20,000 bases of DNA, taken from the IMG/VR virus record IMGVR_UViG_3300045284_000309. One strand, written 5' to 3'. Position numbers and translations under genes: made by a program. Positions 1 through 20,000 of the stretch are shown here, one piece after another. Position 1 is the stretch's first letter, and the number at the start of each line of letters is the position of its first letter. Origin of the DNA: an uncultured virus (IMG/VR IMGVR_UViG_3300045284_000309). Lineage: Duplodnaviria; Heunggongvirae; Uroviricota; Caudoviricetes. The notes beneath the pieces are model-generated. The model had not been told where the DNA came from and ran no database searches. It saw only the letters and a program-made list of their open reading frames with translations.

Positions 1-87
1 AATCCCCCTACGGCCGGAACGATCCAGTTCCCCCGAATCCATCCGGATCCGGGTTTCCTAGATCCATCCGACAAAAAAGGTGGTTAC

Positions 88-1293
88 ATGAAAACGTACG
101 GCAGAAACACTCACCAGGGGTTCATCGCCGAACAATGCGAAAGTGGCAAGTCTCAATCGGAGGCTTTCGCCACACTTGAACCGCTGGTTCTGGCTCAGAT
201 TGAGCCGATGATTTTCACGCGAAACCCTGATCGTTCTATGGGGGAATCGCATCGCATGCCGAAGCCGATGGCGCAGCAATTGCTAGACCTTCGCAACGCT
301 ATCGGCCGGATCTATTCCGCGATTGAGCGGGATAGGGCCGGAACGGGTTCTACCCGCCAGACTCGGACGATTGTTGAAACCGTGGAAACGGCCGAAACTG
401 AAATCGTCGAATCACGGCCGGTAGCGTCAGGAAAGCGCCGGATCGAGACTGAACTGGAAAAGATGGAACGTCGTCTAGATGAAATCTCCAGGTTCTGTCA
501 GTCTCGCAACGAAACGGATCCGATCGATGAAATTGGAATGCGGCCGTATGAAGCGGCAGGCAGACTGATTCCCCGTGGTGTTCCGGCCGATGCGATCCTA
601 TCGGCTATCTCGATTCACTGGTCTAGAGATGCCCGGCAAGATGCGGGTATCGCAGACTTCGATTTCACTGCGTTGTCCAGGCGGTTCATGGATGAGCAAA
701 ACTGCGAATCCTACTGGCGCAATGAACGTGGCCAGACTGAACCGCTACACGAGATGTTCGGCTACGTGCTAACGCTTGCGCAAGCTCGCCAGCCGATCTA
801 TCTCTACGGAATCAAAGGTACGGGGAAATCCCATCTTGCGAGACAGCTTGCAACGTACCTAGACCTGCCGTACGGGGAAACCCCGCTATCGGCTGGCGCA
901 AGCCGTGGCGACCTGCTAGGCAGGCTTACGGCAAGCTCTGAACGGCCGTTCATCCCGGCGAAATTCACGCAATGCTACTCAGGTGGCGGCGTGTTCAATT
1001 TCGAGGAAATGGACGCGGCTCTAGCCGAAATGATTATCGTCCTGAATAACGCATTGGCCGGTGATTATTTCGAGAATTCCATGTCCGGGGAAGCGCTCAA
1101 TAAGAGCGAGAATTTCATCCCCGTGGCAACGGCCAATACCCTCGCAATGGGGGCGAATTCAAAGTACATCCGCGAGCGTTTGGACGCGGCAACTTTGGAC
1201 AGATGGAACCCCGGCCGTGTCGAAGTGAAATTCGACAAAAAACTCGCGAAGCACATGCTTTACAAGCATAGTGGCGGAGTGAAAAACAGCTAG
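88..1293 (+). CDS. CobS/MoxR-like AAA+ ATPase (phage type) with N-terminal extension
   Basis: Walker A GIKGTGKS, Walker B FNFEEMD, sensor ATANT, arginine-finger region RERLDAATLDRW; AAAGGTGG RBS upstream. Confidence 0.85.
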   Translation: MKTYGRNTHQGFIAEQCESGKSQSEAFATLEPLVLAQIEPMIFTRNPDRSMGESHRMPKPMAQQLLDLRNAIGRIYSAIERDRAGTGSTRQTRTIVETVETAETEIVESRPVASGKRRIETELEKMERRLDEISRFCQSRNETDPIDEIGMRPYEAAGRLIPRGVPADAILSAISIHWSRDARQDAGIADFDFTALSRRFMDEQNCESYWRNERGQTEPLHEMFGYVLTLAQARQPIYLYGIKGTGKSHLARQLATYLDLPYGETPLSAGASRGDLLGRLTASSERPFIPAKFTQCYSGGGVFNFEEMDAALAEMIIVLNNALAGDYFENSMSGEALNKSENFIPVATANTLAMGANSKYIRERLDAATLDRWNPGRVEVKFDKKLAKHMLYKHSGGVKNS

Positions 1294-1395
1294 ATCATTG
1301 CGGCTGTAGGGGGATTCAATAAAACGCTAGTAAGCGGGATTTCAGGCTGAATTACACTGGATTGGGAACCCCTTCCGACTAGAAGGGATTTTCCA

Positions 1396-2274
1396 ATGAC
1401 TAAGAGCAATGAGAGCTACTTTCAGATCGATTGGTTCGATTACAAAAAGATCTTGAAATCGACCGTCCTAGACGGTAAGGCTCCGACACTGAATAACGCA
1501 AACACGACGCGGAGTTTCGCAACTCATGTTGCGGATTCCGGTAGCTGGCGCGGCTATTCAGATGGGCAATTGAAGCGGTGGATTTCAGAGGGTTACACTC
1601 CCCCTGAAATGGTCGGTGGTTTGAGTAACCTCATCCCCCCGATGCGTGAAAAGAGTCGCACGATTTGGAACGAAGATGGCGATGAATTTCATGTTGACCG
1701 CGCGATGAGTGGAACGGACAATTTCATGTCCTCTCAGTCTCGCCGGGAGGTTATCCCCGGTCTAAAGATTGAGGCCGGAATCATGTTTAGTTCGGCCACG
1801 AATCACACTGTCGTCAACAATTACACTATCTGGCTTTGCAAGGTATTGTTCTCACTCGAACAAAGTGGAATTGATACTCAGCTTACGCTCGATTTCCCGT
1901 CATGGGAAAGTGTAAATGACTCGTCGCGGAAACGTGCCGGAACGTCAGGCGCGACCCTATATCACTCAGTAGTCAGAGTGAAAAAAGAGGGTGAGATTTC
2001 CGATTTCAAGTCATGGTCGGCGATGGTATCCCCGGCAGCGCTGCGCAACTTCGGTTTCGGGGCTATCTGCCTACATGCGAATGAAATAAATGGAACCCCT
2101 AGCGGTTCGATGGGTAGGGGGGTTCCGGAACGTCACGAATGGAAACTTGTATGGAATGAGGAGAGGCGAGTTTTGATCGTTGAAAACGCCTACACTTCTT
2201 CATCGTTTCCGGAATCCAAAATGACGGCCGACTTGAAAGCCGTCATGCAAAAGGTTAGCGGCAAGACTCAGTAA
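1396..2274 (+). CDS. Probable partner of the AAA ATPase (CobT/VWA-like, unknown function)
   Basis: 292-aa ORF with AGAAGGGA RBS directly after the MoxR-type ATPase; such ATPases usually pair with a VWA-like protein; no clear MIDAS motif seen. Confidence 0.55.
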   Translation: MTKSNESYFQIDWFDYKKILKSTVLDGKAPTLNNANTTRSFATHVADSGSWRGYSDGQLKRWISEGYTPPEMVGGLSNLIPPMREKSRTIWNEDGDEFHVDRAMSGTDNFMSSQSRREVIPGLKIEAGIMFSSATNHTVVNNYTIWLCKVLFSLEQSGIDTQLTLDFPSWESVNDSSRKRAGTSGATLYHSVVRVKKEGEISDFKSWSAMVSPAALRNFGFGAICLHANEINGTPSGSMGRGVPERHEWKLVWNEERRVLIVENAYTSSSFPESKMTADLKAVMQKVSGKTQ

Positions 2275-2324
2275 TTTCATCGGGGTTTCCATCCAGTGTA
2301 ATTCGGATCTATCTTCAAGATTTC

Positions 2325-2359
2325 AGGGCGGCTCTCGCGAGAGGGTCGCCCTTTTTTTT
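2325..2359 (+). terminator. Intrinsic terminator
   Basis: AGGGCGGCTCTC-GCGA-GAGGGTCGCCCT hairpin followed by a T run. Confidence 0.85.
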
Positions 2360-2382
2360 CACGATTTCACGAATTACCTTCC

Positions 2383-2407
2383 GCCCGGTGCCAGCCGGGT
2401 TTTTTTT
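2383..2407 (+). terminator. Second tandem intrinsic terminator
   Basis: GCCCGG-TGCCAG-CCGGGT hairpin followed by a T run. Confidence 0.65.
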
Positions 2408-2723
2408 GTGCTTTCATGTTGTCAGAACGGGCAATTACCAATTACAGGATCCTGTTGCCAAGCCTGGCGATTATCGATTTCAAGGATCGAATGGGAAACC
2501 GATTTCAGGGTGGAATCCGTTTTCAATCCAAAGTGAAATGTTCGCATGTCGGTGCTCGTGAAATTTCACAATCGATTCGTCGCGGGTTGTCTGGCAATGA
2601 AATCCTGGTTATTCTGGGCCGGTGGGCGGGAGTTGGTGGGCCTCGTGGGGAAGCCGTGAAATCGCTTCTACCGTGCTCAGGCTCGTGGCCAGGTGGGAAC
2701 CCTCACCAGACGGCCGGAAGCCG

Positions 2724-2880
2724 TTAGACGGGCTTAGAGAGGCTTGCAGCCATGCGGGTTTGCGAAGCACTTGCCCCTGTGAGGCTCTGTAAGCCGTTCT
2801 AAGAGGCTGGGTTGGCCGGATGACCTGGGAGTCGCATAAGGTGGTCAGAGGCGCTTAGAGAGGCTTACAGGGGCTTGAAA
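2724..2880. repeat. Three clusters of imperfect 10-bp tandem repeats (TTASAGRGGC-like), oriented +,-,+
   Basis: GCTTAGAGAGGCTTRCAG at 2732-2749 and 2853-2870; inverted cluster at 2773-2803. Confidence 0.65.
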
Positions 2881-2961
2881 AAGGTGGGCGGCATGAGCGC
2901 TGGCGTCCGGCGTGAAACTCGGCGTGGAAAGGTGCCGCACTCGTTTTGATAGTTGGGCGCG

Positions 2962-2995
2962 AAAAATAAAAACCCCCGGCGTGAGCCAGGGGTTT
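2962..2995 (-). terminator. Intrinsic terminator of the leftward genes
   Basis: AACCCCCGGC-GTGA-GCCAGGGGTT hairpin with an A run on its left. Confidence 0.8.
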
Positions 2996-3021
2996 CGATG
3001 AAGCCGGGATGCAGAACGGGC

Positions 3022-3543
3022 TTAGATCAGCCGCGCTCCGGACGGCCTTCTGAAAAAGCCGAAGTGCGGATTATCGGGAGAGGGCTTGAGCGTGGCGGTG
3101 AAAACGATGTTACGGCCGTGAAGCTCGGAGGGCATCTTGATTTCGGCCGACTCGTGAATGTTCGCCGGGACGGTTCCCCAAACCTTGTTACCGTCGATCA
3201 GGCGCACCGTCATTTTCAGCGAGTCGCCGTAATCGCTGCTGTGCCACTTGGTCGAAAGGATCTCGCCGCTGAATTCCCGCTTGCCTGCCACGAGATCCGG
3301 CGCACCCTGTGAAATCTCCTCGTCGGCCTTCTTCGTCTCCGCATGATGCTTCGCGGTGCGCATCCACTTTTCAGTTGCGGCCTTCTGCCCTTTAGTGAGC
3401 GAGCCGAACGTCTTGACCGCCGCCTGCATGTCGCGCAGAAAATCGTGGCAGTCGTCACCTTGTGAAAACAGCCAGGAGACAAGCTCGATATTTTCGAGCC
3501 GCCACTCATTCGTATCCTGCATCCTCTGTTCGTGCCGTGTCAT
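3022..3543 (-). CDS. Hypothetical phage protein, possible C-terminal OB-like beta domain
   Basis: 173-aa ORF with GAAAGGA RBS, own promoter and downstream terminator. Confidence 0.8.
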   Translation of the reverse strand: MTRHEQRMQDTNEWRLENIELVSWLFSQGDDCHDFLRDMQAAVKTFGSLTKGQKAATEKWMRTAKHHAETKKADEEISQGAPDLVAGKREFSGEILSTKWHSSDYGDSLKMTVRLIDGNKVWGTVPANIHESAEIKMPSELHGRNIVFTATLKPSPDNPHFGFFRRPSGARLI

Positions 3544-3580
3544 GAGTCAAATTTCCTTTCGCGTGTCGGAAGCTGCGACC

Positions 3581-3609
3581 ACCATACAGGCAATTTCCTT
3601 TCCTGTCAA
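3581..3609 (-). promoter_or_regulatory. sigma70-type promoter
   Basis: TTGACA-N17-TATGGT. Confidence 0.8.
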
Positions 3610-3637
3610 GAGCAATCTTGAAGGTTTCCTAAGAACG

Positions 3638-3662
3638 AAAAGAGCCGCCTTGCGGCGGCTCT
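3638..3662 (-). terminator. Intrinsic terminator
   Basis: AGAGCCGCC-GCAA-GGCGGCTCT-TTT on the minus strand. Confidence 0.8.
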
Positions 3663-3690
3663 CGTGGAGCGGTGGAGCGTGGGAGGGATT

Positions 3691-3927
3691 TCAGAAGCCG
3701 CCCTCCATGAGATGACCGCCGTAGGTTCCGATCTTTTCATCGCGAGCCGCGAAGTGATCGGACGTTCCCATGACGGCCTTGTAAAACTTGCCACGGTCGA
3801 AGCGGGGATTGTCCTGGGCGAACGTGTCAGCGAGTGAAAGCGTGAGGCACCACACGACGCCGGTTTTGTCCTGGGCGAACGCGGGAGCGAGAGTAGCGGC
3901 GATCTTGGCGTAATCCTTCATGGTCAT
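3691..3927 (-). CDS. Small hypothetical phage protein (FxxDNPRFDRxKF motif)
   Basis: ATG at 3927 after AAGGAG RBS; motif familiar from small early phage proteins. Confidence 0.8.
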   Translation of the reverse strand: MTMKDYAKIAATLAPAFAQDKTGVVWCLTLSLADTFAQDNPRFDRGKFYKAVMGTSDHFAARDEKIGTYGGHLMEGGF

Positions 3928-3962
3928 TGCAATTTCTCCTTGTTGTCGGAAGCGATGGAACC

Positions 3963-4314: not shown

Positions 4315-4505
4315 GACCGGCCCTTCATGTCAGAGAGTGAAATTACAGCCTCGCGCATTGCCTCATGCTCCGCTGCCGCGCTTGACGGCTCCAAGAGCAT
4401 CACCGGCTTTTTGCGCTGCCGGTAGCGCCAGTCGATTTCAGCCACGACGCCGACCATGACGACGGCTGCGACAACAACCAGGAGAGCGGCGAGGGAGGCG
4501 GTCAT
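4311..4505 (-). CDS. Small membrane protein (64 aa)
   Basis: N-terminal hydrophobic helix followed by RYRQRKK; ATGA overlaps. Confidence 0.7.
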   Translation of the reverse strand: MTASLAALLVVVAAVVMVGVVAEIDWRYRQRKKPVMLLEPSSAAAEHEAMREAVISLSDMKGRS

Positions 4506-4675
4506 GCCCGCCCCCCTGAAAACGCCTTTGGCGCTATCGCCGTGCTCGTGTCGATAACGAGCCAATCGCCCTTGATGTTGTAATTCGCAAAATCAAGCGC
4601 GGCATTCTCGCTTGAAAACGGGCCGACTAGCTCCGGAAGATCATACCCTCCGGTGAGTAGGATGAACCAGGTCAT
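4502..4675 (-). CDS. Hypothetical protein (57 aa; absent from the ORF track)
   Basis: MTWFILLTGGYDLPELVGPFSSENAALDFA...GGRA; ATGA overlaps at both ends. Confidence 0.7.
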   Translation of the reverse strand: MTWFILLTGGYDLPELVGPFSSENAALDFANYNIKGDWLVIDTSTAIAPKAFSGGRA

Positions 4676-5147: not shown

Positions 5148-5164
5148 GGGCAGTTAGGAAATTC

Positions 5165-5592
5165 GTATCAGGGGAAGGGAAACGGCTCTCTCGCCCCGCT
5201 GTGGCAACCGGAAGCTTGAGAGCCGTACCCTCCCCCCTTTTCCCCCCAGCCCCTCCGGAACGGGTCGGTGAACCCGGAGGACGGAGGGAACCTAGCAGCT
5301 TTTCAGGGCAGATACAACTTCCCCTGGTTGGGCGGTGTTTGACTTCTGTCCTCTGAGTCCGGGGTTTGGAGAGAAAGCGCCCTGTTCGCATATGGAATTT
5401 CAGCCCCCAGCCGGTCATCGTGGCGTAAACCGCTCGATCTGCCACCGGCCACCGTCTTTTACGATTTTGCCCATACCTACGGTGCCTGCTTGAAATTCCT
5501 TATCTGTCGGCCCGACTCTCTCGGAGGTTGTCGGGCATCAATTGAAATTCATGGTGAGCCTCGCGTGTTGCGGGTTTATTCTTGTCGGAAGT
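5165..5592 (-). ncRNA. Candidate structured non-coding RNA
   Basis: Own promoter at 5599-5627, no convincing ORF, at least 7 consecutive hairpins. Confidence 0.4.
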
Positions 5593-5598
5593 GATGCG

Positions 5599-5627
5599 AC
5601 CCTACAGGATCGCTCAGAGCGTGTCAA
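5599..5627 (-). promoter_or_regulatory. sigma70-type promoter
   Basis: TTGACA-N17-TAGGGT. Confidence 0.75.
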
Positions 5628-6350: not shown

Positions 6351-6482
6351 TTAGGCTTCCTTTGCGCACGGCTCGCAAACGCAAGCCGTGGTGAGTAGGG
6401 GAGTCTTGAAAAAGAACCAGTTGCGCAGGGTGAAGGTGCCGCACCCATCGCATCGCGCTCTTTTGTTACAGAGTTTCCACAT
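6351..6482 (-). CDS. Small Cys-rich (Zn-ribbon) protein, 43 aa
   Basis: MWKLCNKRARCDGCG...CEPC; CCGACA leader and GAAAGGG RBS embedded in the 3' end of the HNH gene. Confidence 0.7.
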   Translation of the reverse strand: MWKLCNKRARCDGCGTFTLRNWFFFKTPLLTTACVCEPCAKEA

Positions 6483-6483
6483 T

Positions 6484-6891
6484 TCAACCCTTTCGCTGTC
6501 GGAGGTTCTTGCACTTGCGGCATTGCCTTGTGCCGGTGTCCGGACGAATGTAGACGTTTTCATCCGAAAGCAAATGGCCATTGACGCAATGCGTTTGTCG
6601 AGCCTTCATTGCCACGAAATTTTCACCACGTAGAAGGTTCTCCTGGTGCGTCACAGGCTCGCAGTGAAAAGGATTGGCGCAAGCTCGCTGTCTGCACAGA
6701 TGGTCAAGCTCCAAGTCTTCCAGGATCGGCCCGATAACAATTTCATACATGACTCGGTGAGTCAGACACGTTCGCCCTTCGACGCTTATCGTGCCGTAGC
6801 CCCTGTCAGACTTCGCGCCGCGCCATAGCCAGCAGTCCCATTCGCCACTGGCTACTGAAATTCCCTCCACTATACGAGCTTCCAGATTCAT
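6484..6891 (-). CDS. HNH homing endonuclease
   Basis: CWLWRG...GYG...HRVMYE...LDHLCRQRACANPFH...EN core and C-terminal THCVNGH...CRKC domain; ATG at 6891 overlaps a TGA. Confidence 0.9.
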   Translation of the reverse strand: MNLEARIVEGISVASGEWDCWLWRGAKSDRGYGTISVEGRTCLTHRVMYEIVIGPILEDLELDHLCRQRACANPFHCEPVTHQENLLRGENFVAMKARQTHCVNGHLLSDENVYIRPDTGTRQCRKCKNLRQRKG

Positions 6892-6929
6892 CAATGGCAC
6901 CTTGCCCGCTTCTCGCAGAGCTTCCACAT
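6891..6929 (-). pseudogene. Truncated duplicate N-terminus of the 6351-6482 gene (MWKLCEKRARCH*)
   Basis: 10 of the first 11 aa identical to the downstream copy. Confidence 0.75.
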
Positions 6930-6931
6930 TT

Positions 6932-7309
6932 TCAGTAGTCGCTCGGTCGGAGGATTGTGGTCGTTTCGCGCAGCCAGACCTTATCCGTCCAGGCCGCATC
7001 TGAAATTACCCAAAGCTCGATACCCTTGACCGTGAACGAGCTTACGATCCTTGCGCCGGATTTCACGGAAAGATCGTTCTGCCTTGCGTCGTGGGCATCG
7101 ACCTCGCCCCAATCGCCGTTGACGTGGCGAAGGAGAAGACCCTGCATCGCTGTCTGAAATTCTTGCGTGTCCGGGATTGCATCGACAATCTCGTTGTAGG
7201 CTCCGCTCGCCATCGTGACGCCAGACTTGAGGATCGAAAACCGCGAGCCTGAGACGACGCTGGAATTGCGGCGGATTGCCCTGGGATCGTTCGGCCCTAG
7301 AACAGTCAT
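6932..7309 (-). CDS. Conserved plasmid/phage protein of unknown function (RH..GDWG family)
   Basis: LLRHVNGDWGEVDAHDARQNDLSVKSGARIVSSF...LWVISDA; ATGA overlap at the start. Confidence 0.75.
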   Translation of the reverse strand: MTVLGPNDPRAIRRNSSVVSGSRFSILKSGVTMASGAYNEIVDAIPDTQEFQTAMQGLLLRHVNGDWGEVDAHDARQNDLSVKSGARIVSSFTVKGIELWVISDAAWTDKVWLRETTTILRPSDY

Positions 7310-9894: not shown

Positions 9895-10370
9895 GCTGCG
9901 ATCCTCTCACTGATAATGAAATCTTCGAGATTGAGCCGGTTCTCGAAAATGATCGTGAGGAAGCTGCCCGACCATGAATCGTGATAGTGCTTCATGAGCG
10001 GTTGCCAGTCAATTTCAACACCGATGTAGCTCCACTCGGTTTCATCCATCTTGACGATGGAATTTCGCCATGTCGGATCGCAGACGATGCCATCGCGAAG
10101 CAACCAGGCGTGATGTACCGGCATGAAGCCTGAAAAGCCGTAGCCCTCGCAGTAGGTCACGTCATCTCTGAAAGCTGCGTAGGTGAGGCAGTTTGAAAAA
10201 CAGCGGCCCATCGGCATCTTGCGCAGGCCGGTGCCGCGAAAGCTCGTCCACTTCGATCCTGTCCACTCTTGCCCGTATTTCAGGATCGTCCGCTCGTGGA
10301 TCCCATGCTCTGGAAATCCGAGCTTGTCGTAAGCGTCTACGTGCTGCTGTAGGCAGTCTTTAGCTGTCAT
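9891..10370 (-). CDS. Hypothetical protein with putative Cys-His-Asp (transglutaminase/papain-like) triad
   Basis: GRCFSNC...YCEGY...HHAW...DPTW; start re-called to ATG 10370. Confidence 0.65.
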   Translation of the reverse strand: MTAKDCLQQHVDAYDKLGFPEHGIHERTILKYGQEWTGSKWTSFRGTGLRKMPMGRCFSNCLTYAAFRDDVTYCEGYGFSGFMPVHHAWLLRDGIVCDPTWRNSIVKMDETEWSYIGVEIDWQPLMKHYHDSWSGSFLTIIFENRLNLEDFIISERIAA

Positions 10371-10635
10371 GACCGAACATTTCATTGATCTCGCGAGAAA
10401 GGTCGGGGTTGCCGCTGTCGAACAGGGGAAGCTTCGGCTTGCGCTTGGCAAGATCGATCTGCTCGTAGTGAAATCTCCACTCGGGATGATCCTTGTAATA
10501 TTTGTCGATCTCCCAGTTGACCTGAGCCTCGGTAGCGAACAGGCCCAGAACCTCGATCCCACTGAAAACGCTGTCCGTGTCGATCACAGCCTCGGGCCGG
10601 TAGACCTGGAGAATGTATGTCTTGAGGATAGTCAC
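10360..10635 (-). CDS. Hypothetical protein
   Basis: GTG after CCGACAGAAAGGA leader. Confidence 0.75.
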   Translation of the reverse strand: MTILKTYILQVYRPEAVIDTDSVFSGIEVLGLFATEAQVNWEIDKYYKDHPEWRFHYEQIDLAKRKPKLPLFDSGNPDLSREINEMFGHDS

Positions 10636-10658: not shown

Positions 10659-10751
10659 GCTACCCGCCCCGCTCTCAGGAATCGAACCTGAGCCTCCACC
10701 GTATGTTTCTGGCGGCGCTCTACCTAGCTGAGCTAGAGCGGAGCGGGTAGC
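10659..10751 (-). ncRNA. tRNA-like RNA (non-canonical; core 10668-10742)
   Basis: TA-GCTC-AGCTAGGTA-GAGC D arm, CCGCC/GGTGG stem with 10-nt loop, TCAGG-TTCGATT-CCTGA T arm, 16-bp acceptor stem, no CCA. Confidence 0.8.
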
Positions 10752-11000: not shown

Positions 11001-11277
11001 TATTCTCCTCTCCGACTTCCTCGGCATAGCGGGCTTCCTCGGCGGCTGCAAGCTCTTTGAATTTCCTTGCCCGCCGACGCCAATGCCCCGCCATGAGGTT
11101 TGTCTTGCGCTTGACTTGCCCTTTTTCATGCTTGGCCATCTGCTCGTAGATCCAGCATTGATCTTTCGCATTGTCCGAGAGCACGACTAGCTCATCGGGA
11201 ATCAGGCCCAGAAGATCGACGGCAATTTCAAGATCGTCGGCCTCCTTGCTCATGCCGTGCGTGTTCCACAAACCCAT
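10990..11277 (-). CDS. Hypothetical protein
   Basis: AAAGGAGG RBS, TAATG overlap. Confidence 0.75.
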   Translation of the reverse strand: MGLWNTHGMSKEADDLEIAVDLLGLIPDELVVLSDNAKDQCWIYEQMAKHEKGQVKRKTNLMAGHWRRRARKFKELAAAEEARYAEEVGEENSVI

Positions 11278-11609
11278 TACCGCTGTCCTCCTTTGAGCCG
11301 TACTGTAATTAGCCCTGCGAAATCTTCATCGGTCGGCCGGGTCGGATCGACGTTGTTCCAAGTGCCCTCGATATCGGGATGGCCCTGGATCGTCTCGCCC
11401 TTGTAAACCGTGAGGTTGACATTCTTCGGCTTGGCCGGATCGAAGAATTTCACGAAACCGATGGTCATGTCCTTGAGCGCGTAGTAGATGAAGCAGGTGA
11501 ATCCCCAGATCATCCAGCCGTAGAAGATACCGGATGGCCCGTCCTCGTGAAATCCCCACCAGGCGCATAGCGCCAGAAGCGAGAGTGGAATTATCCTGTG
11601 CATTATCAT
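11277..11609 (-). CDS. Membrane protein (two N-terminal hydrophobic segments)
   Basis: IIPLSLLALCAWWG and IFYGWMIWGFTCFIYYAL. Confidence 0.7.
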   Translation of the reverse strand: MIMHRIIPLSLLALCAWWGFHEDGPSGIFYGWMIWGFTCFIYYALKDMTIGFVKFFDPAKPKNVNLTVYKGETIQGHPDIEGTWNNVDPTRPTDEDFAGLITVRLKGGQR

Positions 11610-11679: not shown

Positions 11680-12519
11680 TCACCGGCGAGCCGTCGTCTT
11701 CTTCTTGACGGGCTTGCTGGCCGTGCTCCTGGCCGTCGTCGTCGTGGCCTTCGGCTTGTTCTTCGATCCAGGCGGACGACCGCGCCGCTTGGGTGCCGCT
11801 GCGGGCTTCTGTGCGGCCTTCTGCGGCTTTGCCTTCTGCGGGGTGGTCTTCCGGGTAGTCGAGCGCTTCGCCGTGCTCCTGGCGGCTCCTGTGGCTCCGG
11901 ACTTGCGGTACGTGCCCTGAGTGCCGTACTCGGCGCGGTTGGTGGACTTCTCGTGCTGGCCCGTCTTCATCGCGAAATCCCAGGCCGTCCGTGAAATCCG
12001 GTACTGGAGCATCGTCTCAGCAGACGCTTGAGTGCGCTTGCTGCCGTCCTGCATCTTCCGGCCGACGAAATCCCAGATCTTCGGAAGCAGTGCCGTGAAA
12101 ACCTTGGCCCGGTTCCCACGGTATTTCCGAAGGGACTTGACGATCAGGTCGGGCGGCGATCCGACGCGGGCGTTCCAACCGTCCGTGACGTTGAAATCCA
12201 CGTCCTTGAGCATCTCACGGCCGGACTCGTCAGCGGTCGAGCGCTTCGCCTTGCCCGTCGTCGCGGACTTTGCGGCAGGCTTCGACTTGACGGCCGTCTT
12301 CGTTGCGGCCTTCGGAGGGCGACCCCGGCGAGCAGGCGTCTTGGTTGCCGTGCGAGTCTTCGTCGCGGGCTTCCGAGTCGTCTTGGTCTTGGTCGATCCA
12401 CCGTTCATGAATTGCACGATGAGCGCCTGAAGCTCGTCAGCGCTTGTTGCGCTGCGAATGTCACTGGCCGGGATACCCAGCCCCTTCGCGCTCTGTCTCA
12501 GTTGTCCGAGAGTTGGCAT
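11680..12519 (-). CDS. Histone H1-like basic DNA-binding protein with two AT-hooks
   Basis: K/A/T/P-rich arms; PARRGRPPK and PKRRGRPPGSKNKPK AT-hooks flank a globular core; CAGGAG RBS, own promoter and terminator. Confidence 0.8.
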   Translation of the reverse strand: MPTLGQLRQSAKGLGIPASDIRSATSADELQALIVQFMNGGSTKTKTTRKPATKTRTATKTPARRGRPPKAATKTAVKSKPAAKSATTGKAKRSTADESGREMLKDVDFNVTDGWNARVGSPPDLIVKSLRKYRGNRAKVFTALLPKIWDFVGRKMQDGSKRTQASAETMLQYRISRTAWDFAMKTGQHEKSTNRAEYGTQGTYRKSGATGAARSTAKRSTTRKTTPQKAKPQKAAQKPAAAPKRRGRPPGSKNKPKATTTTARSTASKPVKKKTTARR

Positions 12520-14036: not shown

Positions 14037-14086
14037 AGCGAGAGGATCCTTCCTTTGATTGGAATTCCATTTTGCTTGTACGTGCT
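14033..14086 (-). pseudogene. Orphan duplicate of the helicase C-terminus (STYKQNGIPIKGRILSL*)
   Basis: Matches the helicase end STYKRNGIKIKSRLGSLG*; its TGA overlaps the next ATG. Confidence 0.75.
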
Positions 14087-14453
14087 ACTTGGTCAATCGC
14101 TTGCGTCGAGCATAAAGCTTGTTTGACTCACGGTGGCATGTTTTACAGGCTCTGCCACCTGTCAAACGTTCGTAGACATTTTCACCTTCCAGAAGGTGAC
14201 CATTGACGCAGTGAGTTTTTTCTCTGTTGACCTTTGCCGTCAAAGGTTCCCTGTTGTCCAGCTTTGCATGGCACGATCTGCACAACTCAGCGTAATCCGA
14301 AATGTCCCAGGTGTATGTCTCGGGATGCCTGAGAAACGCATAGTCCGTCTCCCCTTCCGAATTGCACTGTTCACATGCCCCAGACTTGGGGTAATTTCTT
14401 TTCAGCCACATATGGACTGAATTCGGTTCCCGGCTAACACGCGGCCTACCCAA
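14085..14453 (-). CDS. HNH-type homing endonuclease
   Basis: HMWLKR...CEQC...LCRSCH Zn/HNH core plus THCVNGH...CKTC domain shared with 6484-6891; TTG start uncertain. Confidence 0.75.
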   Translation of the reverse strand: MGRPRVSREPNSVHMWLKRNYPKSGACEQCNSEGETDYAFLRHPETYTWDISDYAELCRSCHAKLDNREPLTAKVNREKTHCVNGHLLEGENVYERLTGGRACKTCHRESNKLYARRKRLTK

Positions 14454-15771
14454 GGCTACCCAACCTCGATTTTATTTTGATCCCATTTCGCTTGTAGGTC
14501 GAGCGGCGCTGGTTCCATTGGTGACGCAAGACGCCTACGTTGTCCACCAAATCGTAAATTTTCGCGTCCTTCTTTCCAGGATGCGCTCTCAGCGCCCGCC
14601 CGACTTGTTGGATAAGTCTTCCCTCATGCTTTCCGGGAAAAGCAAGCACAACTCGATTGAGTCGTGGAATATCGAGAGCCTCGTCTGCAAGCTGTGTAGA
14701 TAGGAGACATCGTAGCTCTCCAGACCGGAAGCGGTCGAGGATTTCAACTCGATCATGTCGGCTACGTTTGCCTGTAAGGATCTCACCCGACTCTTGCATG
14801 TGTCCAGCGATGTTTCCAAGGTGAGCAATCCGTCGGCTAAGGACAAGAACAGAATTTCCATCTTGGATTTCTCTGTCAACAATTTCAGCGATCCTCCTGT
14901 TTCGCCCTTCGTCTTCCACGAGTCGATTGAGCAGAGGCATCCAGTCGAACGGGCCTCGGTACATCGAGCGGAAGCCAGTTTTTACCGGCTCCACTTGTAC
15001 CTTCACCGTTGACGTGAATTTCATTCGATGGATGATCGGGCCAATGATGAACTGCATCGTCGGGTGCATGCCGTCTGCCCGCGTAGGAGACGCCGTAAAG
15101 CCGAAGCGGTATCGAGCAGGACACTGATTGAGAACAGCTTCCCAGGACGGCGCAGAGACGTGATGACCCTCGTCAGCGATTACAACGCCGAACTGCTTCC
15201 AGAAACTCTTGTCGGTTCCGTAGCCGACGAATTTCTGAAGCGTCTGCACGGTTGCAATCGTGATGTGACCGATGTGAAATTCCTTCCCACGGACGACTCC
15301 GACATCAGCATCGGGTAGCGCAACCTTCGCAGCTTCGATCCACTGCTGGAGAATGTCCTCCGTGTGGACGATTACAAGCGTCCTCGTCTTGGCCAGGGAA
15401 GCGAAGGCGAGAGCGATCTGAGTCTTGCCCGTGCCAGGCGGACGGATGATCAACCCTTGCTCGTGCTCAAACATGGATTTCACTGCATCAAGCTGGCCCT
15501 TGAAGCGAGCATCCTTCTCCACGTCATCGAGCTTCACCGTGAAATCGAGCTTTGGCATCGGCGGGCACGTCCGCTTGTCGTGGTACGTGATCGAATCCGG
15601 CATGAGGTTCCAAGCGCCGCGAGGGAGCTTGTAGACACCCTTGGTAATCACTCGCCGGTAGCACATGACGACATCGCCATCGATTTCAAACGTGAGTTGA
15701 CGCTCAAGCTTCTTCCACTGTTCCGGAGTCAACTCTGAAATTCCAACAGTGAGTTGGGCGGTGACGATCAT
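14446..15771 (-). CDS. Superfamily 2 DNA helicase (UvsW/XPB-like)
   Basis: PPGTGKT, DEGHH, TASP, QQVGRALR; ATG 15771 after GAAGGAG. Confidence 0.9.
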   Translation of the reverse strand: MIVTAQLTVGISELTPEQWKKLERQLTFEIDGDVVMCYRRVITKGVYKLPRGAWNLMPDSITYHDKRTCPPMPKLDFTVKLDDVEKDARFKGQLDAVKSMFEHEQGLIIRPPGTGKTQIALAFASLAKTRTLVIVHTEDILQQWIEAAKVALPDADVGVVRGKEFHIGHITIATVQTLQKFVGYGTDKSFWKQFGVVIADEGHHVSAPSWEAVLNQCPARYRFGFTASPTRADGMHPTMQFIIGPIIHRMKFTSTVKVQVEPVKTGFRSMYRGPFDWMPLLNRLVEDEGRNRRIAEIVDREIQDGNSVLVLSRRIAHLGNIAGHMQESGEILTGKRSRHDRVEILDRFRSGELRCLLSTQLADEALDIPRLNRVVLAFPGKHEGRLIQQVGRALRAHPGKKDAKIYDLVDNVGVLRHQWNQRRSTYKRNGIKIKSRLGSLG

Positions 15772-16226
15772 AGCTCCTTCACTCCCTTCTGAGCGCCACC
15801 GACGCGAACCTGGAAGAAAATCTCGTGCATCATCATCGCCTGCTTGCGAACCCACTCTCTCGGGACTTCAGCCATTTCGGGATGGGCCACGTAGAAGTTT
15901 TTCACTGAGCGCTCGCACAGACCCTTCTTGTCGTTCGCTTCGATGAAATCGTGGCATGGCTCGCAAGCAGCCCAGCCTCCTCGTGATCCCCAGCCCACGG
16001 CAGGCTCGACCACGCCGAAATCTCGTGCGTCGTAGCTCCAGCCGACTTCAGGCGCAGAGCAGAAGTCACAGATGGCCTCGTCTGGGCCTACACGGACTTC
16101 AACGTCAAGCCCCTCCTCGGCAAATGGGGTGCCGAATTGATGCGCTTCGATAGGCGTGTCGAACGGCCCGTGGATTTTCTGCTTTGCGCCTTCCTCGAAG
16201 GCGACATGAACGAAATACTTTGGCAT
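15768..16226 (-). CDS. Hypothetical Zn-finger protein
   Basis: CDFC...WAACEPCH. Confidence 0.75.
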   Translation of the reverse strand: MPKYFVHVAFEEGAKQKIHGPFDTPIEAHQFGTPFAEEGLDVEVRVGPDEAICDFCSAPEVGWSYDARDFGVVEPAVGWGSRGGWAACEPCHDFIEANDKKGLCERSVKNFYVAHPEMAEVPREWVRKQAMMMHEIFFQVRVGGAQKGVKEL

Positions 16227-16232
16227 GGCTCC

Positions 16233-16262
16233 AGTGTATCAGACCCTGGGACAGTTACGCAA
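16233..16262 (-). promoter_or_regulatory. sigma70-type promoter with CCCAGGG box
   Basis: TTGCGT-N18-TACACT; ATG follows after 6 nt. Confidence 0.7.
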
Positions 16263-17043
16263 GCCCACCTGAAATAGCCCCGGTTTGGCTCAGTTCAAGG
16301 AAAAACGTCCAGGCGACCGCGAGCGCGTCATACTCGTCGGCAGGCTGTACGGCCTTTGCCTTCGATCCTTCCGGCCTTGGAGTCTTGCCGCCCTTGCGCT
16401 CGATGATGTCCGGGAAGTCTGGAATTTCATTCGGGAATGCACCCATGAAGGCGTAGCCCGGATTCATGGCCCACTGCTTTGAGCGAAACTTCCCAGAGTC
16501 GGCCGGACGACAGTTGTATTTCAGCGCAAGCTCAGGCGACTTCCATTTGGTGTGATGGATTGTAATTTCAAGATCCTCTGCAACCATCATCCGCCAGCGC
16601 GTCGTGTTGATCTGTGCAACGTTCGTGTAGCCCCAGCGGATTAGTCCTCCAAGGAACGCGCCTGAAATTTCCGCCTGCTGCTTCAGGAAGCCGGATGTCT
16701 TGCCCAGAGACATCCCCATCGGCCACGGCTCCTCCTGGGCTATGAAAATCTCCTCCAGTTCCAGCATCGGCATGATCAAATGGCCCTGAAGCGTCCAGAT
16801 GATTTGATGGCTCATCGAAGCCGCCTTGATCCGGTCGAAATACTCGTGCTCAGGAGAATTCCAGCGAACCGTGCTGAAGACTGGCCCCTTCAGCTTCTGC
16901 GTGATTGCGTCATACCCGAAGGCCGCACCTGAAATTGACGACATGCTGGTGTCAAAGCCGCAGATCATCCAGCCGTGTTTCTTGCGCGTGTCCTTCGCGC
17001 CGTATTTCTTATGCTTCGCTAGAGCTTTCACTGAGACTTTCAT
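16255..17043 (-). CDS. RuvC-like Holliday junction resolvase
   Basis: ICGFDTS (RNase H-fold catalytic Asp), IAQEEP, DEYDALAVA. Confidence 0.7.
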   Translation of the reverse strand: MKVSVKALAKHKKYGAKDTRKKHGWMICGFDTSMSSISGAAFGYDAITQKLKGPVFSTVRWNSPEHEYFDRIKAASMSHQIIWTLQGHLIMPMLELEEIFIAQEEPWPMGMSLGKTSGFLKQQAEISGAFLGGLIRWGYTNVAQINTTRWRMMVAEDLEITIHHTKWKSPELALKYNCRPADSGKFRSKQWAMNPGYAFMGAFPNEIPDFPDIIERKGGKTPRPEGSKAKAVQPADEYDALAVAWTFFLELSQTGAISGGLA

Positions 17044-17242
17044 CGAACCTGAGGAACAGCTTGCACAGGCTTTTGAATTCCTCGACGCTAAACGGAATTA
17101 CGATCTCATCACCCTCGTCCAGCGAATACGCCAACTCTACGTATTCGTACCCGGACAGAAACACAGGATATTTCAGCGAAAACTCTGCTTCAGCGCCTGG
17201 CGGATCATCACTGGCGGCGAAATGAATGCGCTCCTCCATCAT
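17009..17242 (-). CDS. Hypothetical acidic protein
   Basis: ATG 17242 after AAAGGAG. Confidence 0.65.
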   Translation of the reverse strand: MMEERIHFAASDDPPGAEAEFSLKYPVFLSGYEYVELAYSLDEGDEIVIPFSVEEFKSLCKLFLRFDESLSESSSEA

Positions 17243-17457
17243 GCTCCTTTTCGCCTTCGATGTAGTCGTCTTTGAATTGCAGATTGCCAGACGCTCGGCG
17301 GAGTGATACACGACGCCCTCACAGCGTAAAGGGTGAGCTTGAAAAACGTGGCAATCTCCTGCGCTGTCCAGCCCTCTCGTGCGAGCGTGTCGATATGTTG
17401 CGCACCAATTTCACAAAGCCAAGTCTTGCGGTACGGTTCAGCAACAACATGAGTCAT
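17239..17457 (-). CDS. Small HTH-like protein
   Basis: LAREGWTAQEIATFFKLTLYAVR resembles an HTH; GAGGAG RBS. Confidence 0.6.
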   Translation of the reverse strand: MTHVVAEPYRKTWLCEIGAQHIDTLAREGWTAQEIATFFKLTLYAVRASCITPPSVWQSAIQRRLHRRRKGA

Positions 17458-17774
17458 GAGTGCTCCTCGCAGAGTGTGTGAGGGACTTCCTGATCCTTGG
17501 CGCGAACACCTTTGGCTGAAATATCCCGCCAGAGTGTCAGCGCCTTATCATGGGCATTGACATCATCGAGCCGCGATCCCATGATCTCGTAGACCACCTG
17601 AATTTCATCGGCCATGATGTTCACGACCTGGCGTGTCGGTATTTCATGGCGCGACTTCTTCTCGGCCTGACTGCGGACGACTGGAATCCTCGCCTCGTAT
17701 TCCGCAAGGGCTTCCTCGTCCGCAGTCACGGCCTCCTGCCGCCGCTTAGCCTTAGCGACAGGGCGCTTCATCAC
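17454..17774 (-). CDS. Hypothetical protein
   Basis: Coupled ORF in the gene string. Confidence 0.7.
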   Translation of the reverse strand: MMKRPVAKAKRRQEAVTADEEALAEYEARIPVVRSQAEKKSRHEIPTRQVVNIMADEIQVVYEIMGSRLDDVNAHDKALTLWRDISAKGVRAKDQEVPHTLCEEHS

Positions 17775-17965
17775 GCGGACTCGATGGTGACGGTGATGCT
17801 CTCGGGAACTTCAACCTTACCATCGAAACCGGACTTGCGAACGTACAGCGTCGGCACCGGAGCGGTGTCCTCCTTCGCGCTGAAAACGTGAGTACCCTTG
17901 GTGGAACGCTCGAAATTCATCTCCACCGTAATCGCCTTCGCTGCCTTCTTTGCTACGGCCATCAT
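17771..17965 (-). CDS. Hypothetical small beta-rich protein
   Basis: AAAGGAG RBS. Confidence 0.7.
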   Translation of the reverse strand: MMAVAKKAAKAITVEMNFERSTKGTHVFSAKEDTAPVPTLYVRKSGFDGKVEVPESITVTIESA

Positions 17966-18393
17966 TTACTCCTTTTTGTTGGCTTGAGACATCGAGCGCA
18001 CTTGCCCGATGGCAATTTGAAATTGGCGATCTGGATATCGAATTCTGCGCAGGCTATGAAGATCCGAATGGCGAACCAGTTCAAGCTATGCCCTTGAACC
18101 ACTTGCAGCCGGGATTCATCCGCCGTGATCGCCTTGCCCCGGAATTTGAAAACCGGCTTGCCCGCCATCCGTGTCATCGTCTCCACCATCGTATCGATGG
18201 CCTTCCTCGTGTTGGCATCCTGGAGGAGATAGATTTCACGAGCGTAATCGTAGCGCTCCTTGGCCGTGTCCTCCAGGTCGATCAACTCATTCTGCCAGTC
18301 ACGTTCCCACTTCCGCGCAGCCTTGGGATCGAAAAGCTCCTCGATCTCATGGACACGCGCAGATTTCACCTTTGACTTTTTGACCGGCCTCAT
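17962..18393 (-). CDS. Hypothetical protein
   Basis: ATGA overlap at 18390-18393. Confidence 0.75.
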   Translation of the reverse strand: MRPVKKSKVKSARVHEIEELFDPKAARKWERDWQNELIDLEDTAKERYDYAREIYLLQDANTRKAIDTMVETMTRMAGKPVFKFRGKAITADESRLQVVQGHSLNWFAIRIFIACAEFDIQIANFKLPSGKCARCLKPTKRSK

Positions 18394-18680
18394 CGGTTCC
18401 TGTTCTTTCGCTTCAACAGCCTGCAAATTTCACAGCTATCGACAATGTAGTCAGGGGCTACGCTCAACTCAATCCACGAGTGTTCGCAGTCATATTCCTG
18501 AAATTGCCGGATAAGCTCGATTGGATCCAGGTCATCCGCCATGTTCTCCTCGACGTAGCGAGCGAGCGGAGACAGCCCCGATGGTAGAAGGATCTCATCG
18601 GCCCAGTGTTGTTTCGGGTGCTTCTTCCTGGGCCGACGATGTACCTTCTGATATCGAGTAGTGACCTTGTTTCGTGCCAT
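18390..18680 (-). CDS. Hypothetical protein with CxH...CxxC motif
   Basis: ATG 18680 downstream of a promoter; the track's TTG start is the -35 box. Confidence 0.7.
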   Translation of the reverse strand: MARNKVTTRYQKVHRRPRKKHPKQHWADEILLPSGLSPLARYVEENMADDLDPIELIRQFQEYDCEHSWIELSVAPDYIVDSCEICRLLKRKNRNR

Positions 18681-18687
18681 CTCCTGG

Positions 18688-18716
18688 AAGATATCAGTCC
18701 CAGGGATGGTTGTCAA
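18688..18716 (-). promoter_or_regulatory. sigma70-type promoter with CCCTGGG box
   Basis: TTGACA-ACCATCCCTGGGACTGA-TATCTT. Confidence 0.8.
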
Positions 18717-18719
18717 GGG

Positions 18720-19208
18720 CTAATCGATTGGAGCGCGTTCGGATGTTTGCCGTGAAATCTCGCGAGACGCAGCGTTCCTGATGCCCTCGTACGTGCGGAC
18801 GACAGCCTCCATGAGCGTGAGCTTGATCTCGATAGCAGAAATTTCATCGAGGAACCCGGCGATCTCCTCGTCGTCCTCCATCATCGCGTCCACGATGTTC
18901 TTCGGTTTCCCCGGATTCCGAATTCTGAATTTCGCTTGTGCGATTCGCAGTTCGCGCTTCAGCCTGAGTATGTCGGACTCCAGCAGAGCGGCGTTGAAAA
19001 CCGCATGCGAATGACGGACGGCGTAACGGGACTGAAGCTCGCCTATGCCCCTGGAGGAGAGCCGAGTGAAATCGAGCGGCACTCTTTCATCGTCTGGCGG
19101 AATATCTTCAGGGACGACGATTCCTGCCGTGGCCATCCAATGCAGCGCCCGAGATTTCGGGGTAGAGATTTTCAATTCCTTCGGCGCGTTCTTCTTGCGG
19201 ACTGTCAT
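18720..19208 (-). CDS. Coiled-coil protein, possibly a UvsY-like recombination mediator
   Basis: All-helical pattern ending ASREISR, next to the exonuclease; family call tentative. Confidence 0.5.
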   Translation of the reverse strand: MTVRKKNAPKELKISTPKSRALHWMATAGIVVPEDIPPDDERVPLDFTRLSSRGIGELQSRYAVRHSHAVFNAALLESDILRLKRELRIAQAKFRIRNPGKPKNIVDAMMEDDEEIAGFLDEISAIEIKLTLMEAVVRTYEGIRNAASREISRQTSERAPID

Positions 19209-20000
19209 CTTCCCTTCCTTAGTATTTTCGTGACTCTCTCTGCCGTCGTCGGTTCCCGTACCGCGAGCTTTTCACGCAGCCTCTGTGTGTGTGCCTTCCC
19301 TGAAGCCTCCACTTCGTCATGGCAGATGTTCCGGAACTGACATGACGTGAAATTCCTGTCCTTCAGGGACTTGCAGAGCGGCGGGGGCATCTCGCCCTTC
19401 TCCTCGAAATCGCGCAGTAGCTCCAGCCTGGAGCGGACACGCCTTCCGTTCTTCTCCAGTGTAATTACAGCCTCCTGAAGAATGTCCTTGGCTCCGCTCT
19501 TGTCCTCGACCACGAGCAAGCCGCGCTCGATTGCAAACGGCTTTGCCCTGGCCGCATTCCAGAGCACGAGATAATTTCCGACCTGGCTCTTGTAGCCGAC
19601 CGGAATCTTCCCGTAGCCGACTCGCGTTGCCGACCACGTATTCAGCCCCTTGAAATCGATCACGAGTGGCTCTCCGTGAACGAACGCGACGACATCGATG
19701 GTGCCCATGTTGTCGCCCCGCTTTGATTTCACAGGCCGCTCGTAATCGTAGACACTAAAAATCTCGGAGTTGTTGATCGCCTTCTCCATCTTGTAAAGCG
19801 CGAACTGCCATTTGATGTGAAGGAAATTCCCGGTCATAAAAAAGTAATGCGAGCGGAAATCGTACGGAGACGGTGCTCCTTCCGGCCGTACGGCATGCCG
19901 AGTCAGGTACGACTTGCGGACGCATGGATCGCCCAGAGACGACGGTGAAAAGACCCCCAGACCTTCAGTGCGCCGTTCCTCCTCACGACGCATCATCTTT
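19205..20000 (-). CDS. Cas4-like PD-(D/E)XK exonuclease (start may lie outside the window)
   Basis: SPSSLGDPCVRK, GTIDVV...IDFKG, QVGNY, C-terminal C...CQFRNIC Fe-S ligands. Confidence 0.85.
   Translation of the reverse strand, partial: KMMRREEERRTEGLGVFSPSSLGDPCVRKSYLTRHAVRPEGAPSPYDFRSHYFFMTGNFLHIKWQFALYKMEKAINNSEIFSVYDYERPVKSKRGDNMGTIDVVAFVHGEPLVIDFKGLNTWSATRVGYGKIPVGYKSQVGNYLVLWNAARAKPFAIERGLLVVEDKSGAKDILQEAVITLEKNGRRVRSRLELLRDFEEKGEMPPPLCKSLKDRNFTSCQFRNICHDEVEASGKAHTQRLREKLAVREPTTAERVTKILRKGR

Follow-up and report, generated by a model that had tools for sequence, protein, structure and literature searches.

An evenly spaced hexamer lattice laid over the genes of a soil phage family

Introduction

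Short words enriched throughout a genome, in either strand and within genes, are known from the DNA uptake sequences (DUS) of Neisseriaceae and the uptake signal sequences (USS) of Pasteurellaceae, which are 9 to 12 bp long, occur about once per kilobase in bacterial chromosomes, and function in the uptake of extracellular DNA. Their spacing has been described as significantly even (Karlin, quoted in PMC1939737) or as "relatively even" (PMC7811141), and their lineage dialects as matching the cognate receptor (PMC3630211, PMC3868556). Here we analyze a 20,000-bp stretch of DNA from an uncultured virus of the Caudoviricetes (IMG/VR record IMGVR_UViG_3300045284_000309), referred to as the window, and describe a word that shares this distribution, the hexamer TGAAA[A/T], together with its counterparts in related genomes. 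The likeness to DUS extends to dialects, as TGAAAT, TGAAAA, TGACAA, and TGCCAA follow the clades of a helicase tree. The carrier, however, is a phage with terminase, capsid, and baseplate genes instead of a competent bacterium, the word measures 6 bp and recurs once per 90 to 180 bp, the uptake sequences being about tenfold sparser, and no uptake step is involved. The inverted pair TGAAATTTCA occurs once in the window.

Chi-rich phages, such as the lambdoid LLS class and P1, resemble the present case in that a phage genome gathers a short word read by a DNA-processing machine. Chi in the LLS and MD8 phages is described as strongly oriented (20 vs. 3 and 32 vs. 0), clustered at one end, and present about once per 1.9 kb (PMC12315714). 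Chi is the host's word, whereas the lattice reported here is orientation-free, even, 10 to 20 times denser, and unseen in the contigs of the candidate host.

Genome-coating phage proteins are known as well, although not paired with a defined and selected word lattice. The p6 protein of phi29 is said to read DNA shape and not a defined word. It is described as a small and abundant protein forming a nucleoprotein complex along the viral DNA (PMC10899789). The phi29 case differs in that no evenly spaced hexamer lattice is reported, and the candidate protein considered below is unrelated to p6 in sequence and fold. The stoperators of cluster A mycobacteriophages and the HU-type TF1 of SPO1 likewise involve phage DNA-binding proteins with many dispersed sites in their own genome; stoperators are 13 bp long, number a few dozen per genome, are mostly intergenic, and are oriented with transcription, while TF1 prefers hydroxymethyluracil DNA. 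Unlike these, the lattice consists of hundreds of 6-bp sites, inside genes and in both orientations, and HU is missing from one of the complete genomes (G002). A full-text literature search, with most subscription journals outside its coverage, returned no description of an evenly spaced over-represented phage word, and we found no described counterpart in phages of an evenly spaced, selected hexamer lattice.

Results

The window has a GC content of 55.4% and contains a phage replication and recombination module. It holds 98 copies of TGAAA and 91 of TTTCA, in total 189 sites or one per 106 bp, against a zero-order expectation of 27.3, a 6.9-fold excess. The pair is the commonest pentamer of the window and TGAAAT/ATTTCA (108 copies) the commonest hexamer. 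A preliminary description of this sequence had claimed such an over-representation on both strands and inside genes, and the full counts bear it out and make the effect larger than claimed. Its hand count for positions 1–3000 (about 38) was exact (20 + 18 = 38); that for positions 16201–17410 was off by one, with 12 sites stated and 11 (5 + 6) found.

The base 3′ of TGAAA is T at 57% and A at 33% of the sites, and the flanks further out carry no information. The true word is the hexamer TGAAA[T/A] rather than the pentamer, and its copies lie on either strand, inside and between genes, at a mean spacing of 117 bp in the window. Single-base variants of the word were not enriched in the window, with a weak z of 3.0 for TTACA as the sole exception: CGAAA was found 29 times with 34.6 expected and TGAAG 31 times with 35.9 expected, and neither CGAAA, GGAAA, nor AGAAA was enriched. 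Coding DNA had a site density of 9.2 per kb, compared with 10.6 per kb for noncoding DNA. On the coding strand, TGAAA occurred in frame 1 (n = 33) and frame 2 (n = 49), frame 0 being one that would create a stop, and TTTCA was spread over the three frames (17, 26, and 34). Lysine after a codon ending in TG was encoded by AAA 33 times and by AAG 17 times, while AAA made up 94 of all 368 lysine codons.

To evaluate this excess, we permuted codons synonymously within each of 33 hand-picked open reading frames (ORFs; summed length 17,277 nt, unique length 16,403 nt, some of them overlapping) and repeated the shuffle 500 times. TGAAA was observed 82 times, compared with 28.1 ± 4.4 in the shuffles (maximum 41), and TTTCA 77 times, compared with 26.8 ± 3.8 (maximum 39), giving z values of 12 to 13 for the two orientations. 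Under a third-order Markov model (100 simulations), the 189 pentamers compared with 118.8 ± 10.9 (maximum 143, z = 6.5) and the 171 copies of TGAAAW with 71.0 ± 9.0. The preliminary description had held that its claim would fall if the enrichment disappeared under either of these nulls; the excess persisted in both. An explanation by hidden stop codons in other frames was considered and rejected: TGA was barely raised (349 vs. 311), the pentamers TGAGA, TGATA, and TGACA were not raised in the window, and the redundancy of sites across frames speaks against such a reading.

No close relative was found among cultured phages, where helicase identity was at most 27%, and single-protein searches of IMG/VR gave none either, so that an alignment of the superfamily 2 (SF2) helicase was required. 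Hundreds of homologues of this helicase exist in metagenomes, many of them located on 60- to 76-kb contigs. The alignment retrieved nine IMG/VR loci (eight of them in the family), one 70.8-kb contig (G001c84) binned into an Acidobacteria metagenome-assembled genome (MAG G001), and about twenty soil-metagenome loci, and near-identical DNA was present in soil metagenome runs from several studies. Six complete relatives of 64 to 71 kb (G001c84 and G002–G006) and 16 partial loci showed the same lattice, with further dialects of the word. One of the complete relatives, G003, has terminal repeats and encodes baseplate proteins, a gpA-type terminase, a DnaE-type polymerase, RecA, a DnaB-like helicase, HU, and NADAR in addition to genes seen in the window; the family comprises soil phages with contractile-tail-type baseplate genes. 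TGAAA reached 3.8 to 7.0 times its expectation in nine of nine family loci of the first two collections, compared with 0 to 2.4 times in 79 unrelated genome loci and 1.3 times in a distant IMG/VR locus (29% identity). In the helicase tree, the family formed one clade with a support of 100/100, and the dialects followed its subclades.

Each of the six whole genomes had one or two hexamers far above all others. The leading word was TGAAAA in G006 (322 copies, 21 times the zero-order expectation and with 33 expected from trinucleotides) and TGAAAT in G003 (343) and G004 (316); G002 combined TGAAAA (264) with TGAAAT (171), and TGACAA and TGAAAA led together in G005 (426, 21 times zero-order, and 162) and in G001c84 (369 and 224). 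Two shorter loci (L139 and L159) showed the additional dialect TGCCAA. A dialect word was among the four most enriched hexamers in all 15 of the analyzed family loci of at least 2.4 kb from the metagenome set, and among the top hexamers of none of the more distant helicase relatives (at most 38% identity, 67 to 70% GC). The family-wide word is therefore TG[A/C/G][A/C]A[A/T], and TGAAA[T/A] is the local dialect of the window. Around the optimum word of each lineage the enrichment was graded, as in an affinity landscape.

Enrichment was uniform over the whole genome, structural genes included. Plus- and minus-strand counts were close to equal in G002 (215/220), G003 (244/243), and G004 (234/244), and the strand biases seen in G001c84, G005, and G006 were uniform along the genome, without a switch. 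The phage contig in MAG G001 was enriched about 5- to 6-fold along its length, while the eight other contigs of the MAG (about 72 kb in total) showed TGAAA at 1.0 to 2.8 times and TGTCA at 0.5 to 1.5 times expectation. A host-wide signature was thereby rejected for MAG G001, the only candidate host and one assigned by binning only; if this MAG is the host, the code is a feature of the phage rather than of its host. Resemblance to a −35 promoter box was rejected as well: the perfect TTGACA (TGTCAA) was mildly raised in G001c84 (85 vs. 20 expected), compared with 369 copies of TGACAA.

The preliminary description had suggested a check for periodic spacing. We found the sites to be evenly spaced, although not with the 10- to 11-bp period of the helix: no such phasing appeared in the spacing analysis, in which the top periods were 380, 3, 95, and 4. 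With both strands pooled, the coefficient of variation (CV) of the gaps was 0.62 to 0.96 across genomes (window, 0.81), indicating a spacing more even than that of a Poisson process, and gaps shorter than 20 bp made up 2 to 7% instead of the expected 10 to 20% (2.9% vs. 15.7% in the window). The pair correlation of sites was 0.22 at 1 to 10 bp, 0.31 at 11 to 20 bp, 0.58 at 21 to 30 bp, and about 0.75 at 31 to 50 bp, reaching 1 beyond. Depletion over the first three of these intervals was as marked between opposite strands (0.19, 0.26, and 0.57) as on the same strand (0.25, 0.37, and 0.60). Other frequent words, with the exception of motif-related ones, had pair correlations of 0.75 to 2.2 at 6 to 30 bp and CVs of 0.84 to 1.35. 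Different dialect words within one genome also repelled each other, the pair correlation of TGACAA with TGAAAA being 0.15 to 0.17 at 7 to 20 bp, compared with 0.6 to 1.1 for a dialect word with a control word, from which we conclude that the dialect words are interchangeable members of one class. A general clustering of A/T runs was rejected as an explanation, as runs of at least four A/T were not evenly spaced (CV 0.93 to 1.05 in four genomes).

We defined an opportunity as a position at which the encoded amino acids allow the word through synonymous codons. The window used 154 of its 398 pentamer and 140 of its 234 hexamer opportunities (60%), the six complete genomes used 51 to 66%, and all allowed frames in both senses were used, at 33 to 82%. 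How often an opportunity was used varied with how far away the closest other site lay, whichever its strand. For the pentamer in the window it was 4/46 at 1 to 10 bp, 9/58 at 11 to 20 bp, 14/51 at 21 to 30 bp, 37/84 at 31 to 50 bp, 43/67 at 51 to 80 bp, and 31/48 at 81 to 120 bp; it was lower again at 121 to 200 bp (11/35) and 4/8 beyond 200 bp. The dependence was steeper in G005, with 2/71 opportunities used within 10 bp and 193/215 at more than 80 bp from the nearest site, and in G006, where 3 of 50 opportunities were taken within 30 bp and 54 of 61 at more than 200 bp. For control words, the use was about 0.2 beyond 30 bp, with no deficit near a neighboring copy. Codon usage alone, as estimated from the shuffle, predicts that about 55 of the 398 pentamer opportunities are used; since use beside an existing site is close to this level, redundant sites look unselected rather than harmful. 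The pattern suggests that the function needs at least one copy per approximately 50 to 100 bp of duplex, in either orientation, with each copy serving some 25 to 40 bp per side.

In 1,000 draws per genome, each placing the observed number of sites randomly on the real opportunities, the scarcity of gaps of 30 bp or less was never reproduced for six of the seven genomes; in the window, such gaps made up 7.2%, compared with 18.3 ± 2.4% in the draws (minimum 11.5%). The exception was G004: here the even spacing is that of the palindrome AATT (620 sites, gap CV 0.53), mostly present as GNAATT or AATTNC, and not that of TGAAAT. AATT is a looser or second dialect of this genome.

For the conservation of sites, we compared 46 orthologue pairs of G005 and G001c84 with a mean amino-acid identity of 65%, a divergence at which silent sites should be saturated. 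Where both proteins permit the word, 174 of 200 sites of one genome (87%) had a match in the other; where the first genome had no site, the partner had one in 27 of 108 cases (25%). At 121 of 321 sites, the partner's amino acids cannot encode the word, and for 111 of the 147 sites without an exact counterpart the partner had a site within 60 nt. The window and G002 gave a similar picture, with 16 of 20 sites matched compared with 4 of 17 positions where the first had none. Together, the retention and the nearby replacement indicate that a site is retained if the protein allows it and is otherwise replaced by one close by, a pattern of purifying selection with turnover.

The densest site cluster of the window is noncoding, lies 3′ of the CobT-like gene, and is the only place in the window breaking the spacing rule. 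It has nine hexamers in the 250 bp from position 2356, compared with a mean of 2.1, and several of them stand in a longer form, CGATTTCA, between terminator-like hairpins. G002 has noncoding clusters of seven to eight sites per 250 bp and the clusters of G003 are largely noncoding, while the densest 250-bp window of G004 is about half coding. The noncoding clusters might be a nucleation, origin, or packaging region. The noncoding DNA beside the cluster of the window, at 2720–2880, also carries direct and inverted copies of GGCTTAGAGAGGCTT(A/G)CAG; no Rfam family matched anywhere in the window, these repeats included.

Among the 12 genes common to all six complete genomes (by crude ORF calls), one (11680–12519 in the window) stands out as by far the most basic, with a net charge of +49 in the window and +58 in G003. 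Its orthologues were present in seven of seven genomes and share a conserved architecture: an N-terminal three-helix motif similar to SAP and Rho-N, a Lys/Thr/Ala-rich linker, a core, and a basic tail. The core of about 90 residues (about 105 to 190) is predicted to form three helices with a predicted local distance difference test score of approximately 90. The N-terminal motif matched SAP/Rho-N-like folds weakly (VIA Z of 4.2 to 5.4), and among 25 relatives of the protein, SAP scored above the Pfam cutoff in two and Rho_N was found in three, all below it. The Lys/Ala/Thr/Pro-rich linker and tail have a composition like that of the histone H1-like HC2, which matched 6 of the 25 relatives, all below the cutoff, and was precomputed on 5 of 55. 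A profile of the core found 205 cluster representatives, and the best 150 of the 205 mostly have the core in mid-protein. Searching the Protein Data Bank (PDB) with the core profile gave nothing below an E value of 0.7, and an Atlas search returned only unnamed clusters with scores of at most 0.82. HU was another candidate reader. Besides G003, four of five further genomes searched encode it, and it was rejected as the reader on account of the complete genome G002, in which it was not found and which has a strong lattice.

Discussion

Our analyses establish selection on the word, its orientation independence, the dependence of its use on spacing, its dialects, and its specificity to the family. 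The preliminary description had proposed that a selected code at the level of the DNA overlies the coding sequence; the two null models, the distance-dependent use, the retention between genomes, and the family-wide lattice all support it, and we regard such a code as nearly certain. Of the mechanisms listed there, Chi-like and primase-like signals and a modification target are argued against by the data, and a genome-coating or self-marking protein fits best. The sites are double-stranded and orientation-free and show a footprint-like exclusion over a zone of about 30 to 50 bp, and the best fit to these data is a duplex-binding protein with a footprint or zone of some 50 to 80 bp. That a protein reads the word, which protein it is, and what its coating achieves we infer from this picture.

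Our preferred, though tentative, explanation is that the words are landing sites for a protein coating duplex DNA. Every copy would serve an abundant DNA-binding protein as a place to land on the duplex or to nucleate, and a bound unit would span roughly 50 to 80 bp, so that one site per stretch would suffice and a second one nearby would add nothing. Selection holds approximately one copy per 90 to 180 bp, on either strand, over the whole genome of 64 to 71 kb, and through this lattice the coating, compaction, or marking by the protein would be specific to the phage chromosome. Dialects would arise as protein and genome drift together. The coating protein may be the conserved, very basic SAP/linker-histone-like protein, with a host protein as the main alternative; we put the phage protein forward as a candidate reader whose identification is doubtful. 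Its specific core and two long basic arms would suit one site per 50 to 80 bp. The system could possibly amount to a sequence-encoded phage chromatin, an idea we hold with less confidence than that of landing sites as such. The linker-histone-like protein of the virus would load on a selected lattice of one hexamer per 50 to 100 bp, and inside the host this coat, compaction, or mark of self would be confined to the phage chromosome, with the coevolution of protein and genome giving dialects in the way that DUS dialects follow ComP.

Several observations weigh against this picture. Foldseek matched the core of the candidate to nothing in the PDB or BFVD at E ≤ 0.001, and the wide VIA search reached at most Z = 5.4, within the stated noise range of that tool; the DNA-binding label would thus rest on charge, the SAP-like motif, and weak helix-turn-helix-like rows. 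The preliminary description had linked the enrichment to an "AT-hook gene". The gene is indeed conserved in seven of seven genomes, but its RGRP AT-hooks, of which the window copy has two, are present in only two of the seven orthologues, and we rejected them as the reader. Dialect differences in the protein follow the phylogeny, and with seven genomes covariation is inseparable from descent. The loss of HU from the list shows how thin the list of candidates is, and the link to the MAG rests on binning only, which leaves a host-encoded reader as an alternative. Finally, with AATT as the regular feature of G004, the specificity of the reader would need to be looser in that genome.

The alternative closest to a phage-encoded coat is a host protein of the IHF, HU, or Fis type that is recruited or soaked up, with the dialects tracking host switches. 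It would produce the same sequence picture of double-stranded, orientation-free sites with footprint-like spacing; phage HU is not universal, and the clades that the dialects follow may also be host clades. Nevertheless, the other contigs of MAG G001 lack the enrichment, although hosts need not enrich their own sites, and the phage encodes a strongly basic, family-specific core protein, and we consider a host reader unlikely. Somewhat less likely still is that the word is the target of a DNA-modifying phage enzyme, an even layer of modified bases shielding the genome. Nonpalindromic hexamers are typical targets of such enzymes and the coverage logic would fit a shield, but restriction palindromes are nearly absent from all seven genomes, and the avoidance of palindromes is the strategy of DNA that can be cut, which argues against a protective modification. 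Moreover, a mark 40 bp away gives a restriction site no protection, and the 33 ORFs of the window and 62 of G003, many of which are without a family, yielded no match to a methyltransferase or base-modification family. Of similarly low probability is a role as primase start sites, in which the template 5′-WTKTCA-3′ would give pppG-A-(A/C)-A-(A/U) primers with a cryptic 3′ A, and recombination-dependent replication would call for sites on both strands. Among the proteins of the family are RecA, DnaB-like and SF2 helicases, and a DnaE polymerase, and the invariant TG/CA part presumably sits where the core trinucleotides of the T7 and DnaG primases sit. Against this, sites on opposite strands substitute for each other and are as depleted within 30 bp as those on the same strand, while sites used for priming belong to a different fork on each strand, so that independence would be expected. 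A lattice with a site every 100 bp is also far denser than the spacing of phage Okazaki fragments, and the Pfam and PHROGs scans of the 33 window ORFs and 62 + 12 ORFs of G003, many of them familyless, found no primase family.

The same dependence between strands bears on a Chi-like signal that would tame the host RecBCD/AddAB, or the phage's own SF2 helicase and Cas4-like exonuclease, and so protect or recombine the DNA: such signals are read on one strand, and the lattices of the two strands should be independent. Phages rich in Chi are described (23 sites in LLS and 32 in MD8; PMC12315714, PMC3784561), and the window encodes both a Cas4-like PD-(D/E)XK exonuclease and an SF2 helicase. The lattice is, however, 10 to 20 times denser, even, without an orientation requirement, and redundant between strands, and MAG G001, a candidate host by binning only, is not enriched; we find a Chi-like role improbable. 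Readings without any reader fare worst. One is that a flexible TG step beside a rigid A-tract kinks the DNA and eases packing into the capsid. None of the A-tracts TGAAAA, TGAAAT, and GAAATT contains a TpA step, and words with TpA are strongly depleted (TA odds of 0.38 to 0.50, no TTAA in the window), but the dialects TGACAA and TGCCAA are not A-tracts, the leading TG is required, as the lack of enrichment of CGAAA, GGAAA, and AGAAA shows, and A/T runs with a CV of about 1 in four genomes and the lack of 10- to 11-bp phasing do not fit; we give this reading very little weight. Equally little is left for a neutral by-product of context-specific mutation or repair bias, or of molecular drive as proposed for uptake sequences. 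Drive alone is described as able to build uptake sequences in competent bacteria and to spread them fairly evenly (PMC7811141). Whether the word is used here varies with how close the next site lies, regardless of strand, an effect that mutation bias cannot produce, and sites are retained (87% vs. 25%) at a saturated divergence. To our knowledge, a phage has no fragment-wise transmission step.

If the lattice is as it appears, a virus of 70 kb takes 50 to 66% of its synonymous chances for one hexamer, and up to 90% of those without a near neighbor. It would then rank with the strongest cases, in any genome, of a second code superimposed on protein-coding DNA, and sequence, instead of base modification, would be shown to suffice for a phage to label its entire chromosome. 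One word and one candidate protein would then form a testable system for the discrimination of viral and host DNA, compaction, and shielding. Such words distort host prediction and binning based on codon usage and k-mers, as illustrated by the phage contig binned into the Acidobacteria MAG. The test of opportunity use against distance is applicable to all viral genomes in the search for other hidden codes.

Other Features of the Window

The window encodes a CobS-like AAA ATPase with its DUF7192 partner, two HNH endonucleases, a HIRAN protein, an SF2 helicase, and a Cas4-like PD-(D/E)XK exonuclease, and most of its ORFs are without a family (Table 1). The CobS-like/DUF7192 pair, the sole plus-strand genes of the window, is conserved in G003. 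The regions of the two HNH ORFs (14085–14507 and 6444–6895) are cleanly absent from contigs of other soil runs, with a skip of 421 in X3–X5 and a skip of 450 in X4 and X5, and behave like mobile homing-endonuclease insertions. Further presence/absence differences among the soil runs were seen at 4499–4670, 5281–5627, 10361–10634, and 11010–11317.

Table 1. Features of the window, with one gene of a relative
Feature	Position	Strand	Remarks
TGAAA[A/T] hexamer lattice	1..20000	both	171 of 189 pentamer sites; 89 (+), 82 (−)
CobS-like AAA_5 ATPase	88–1293	+	PHROG "porphyrin biosynthesis"
DUF7192 protein	1396–2274	+	
Densest site cluster	2275..2700	.	noncoding
HNH endonuclease ORF	6484–6999		
tRNA-like gene	10666–10742	−	four-base anticodon (aaca); ARAGORN; between two small ORFs
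Candidate reader/coating protein	11680..12519	−	279 aa, net charge +49, pI 11.6
HNH endonuclease ORF	14085–14453		
Familyless core gene	16255–17043	−	no Pfam/PHROG match
NADAR-domain gene (G003)	L113:12493–13008		

The familyless core gene contains the motifs GFDTS and DEYDALAVAW, which by eye we take to resemble a RuvC-type resolvase. The tRNA-like call may be false.

Restriction palindromes were nearly absent from the window (observed/expected): TTAA 0/49, GGWCC 0/52, GCCGGC 0/9, CTCGAG 0/6, CAGCTG 0/6, GGGCCC 0/9, CCCGGG 0/9, GGCGCC 0/9, and CGATCG 1/6, as was the nonpalindromic GAAGAG/CTCTTC (0/10). The six complete relatives were likewise nearly free of such palindromes, with slightly varying sets; G006 keeps GCCGGC at 78/43. 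The TA dinucleotide had an odds ratio of 0.45 in the window, and the leucine codon TTA was used for none of the 389 leucine codons in the 33 ORFs.

NADAR enzymes reverse the ADP-ribosylation of DNA bases by DarT-type defense toxins, and the NADAR gene of G003 may be a counter-defense gene. Some family members have a helicase intein, as the helicase homologue P0073 (locus L008, 737 aa) contains the intein-splicing domain PF14890.

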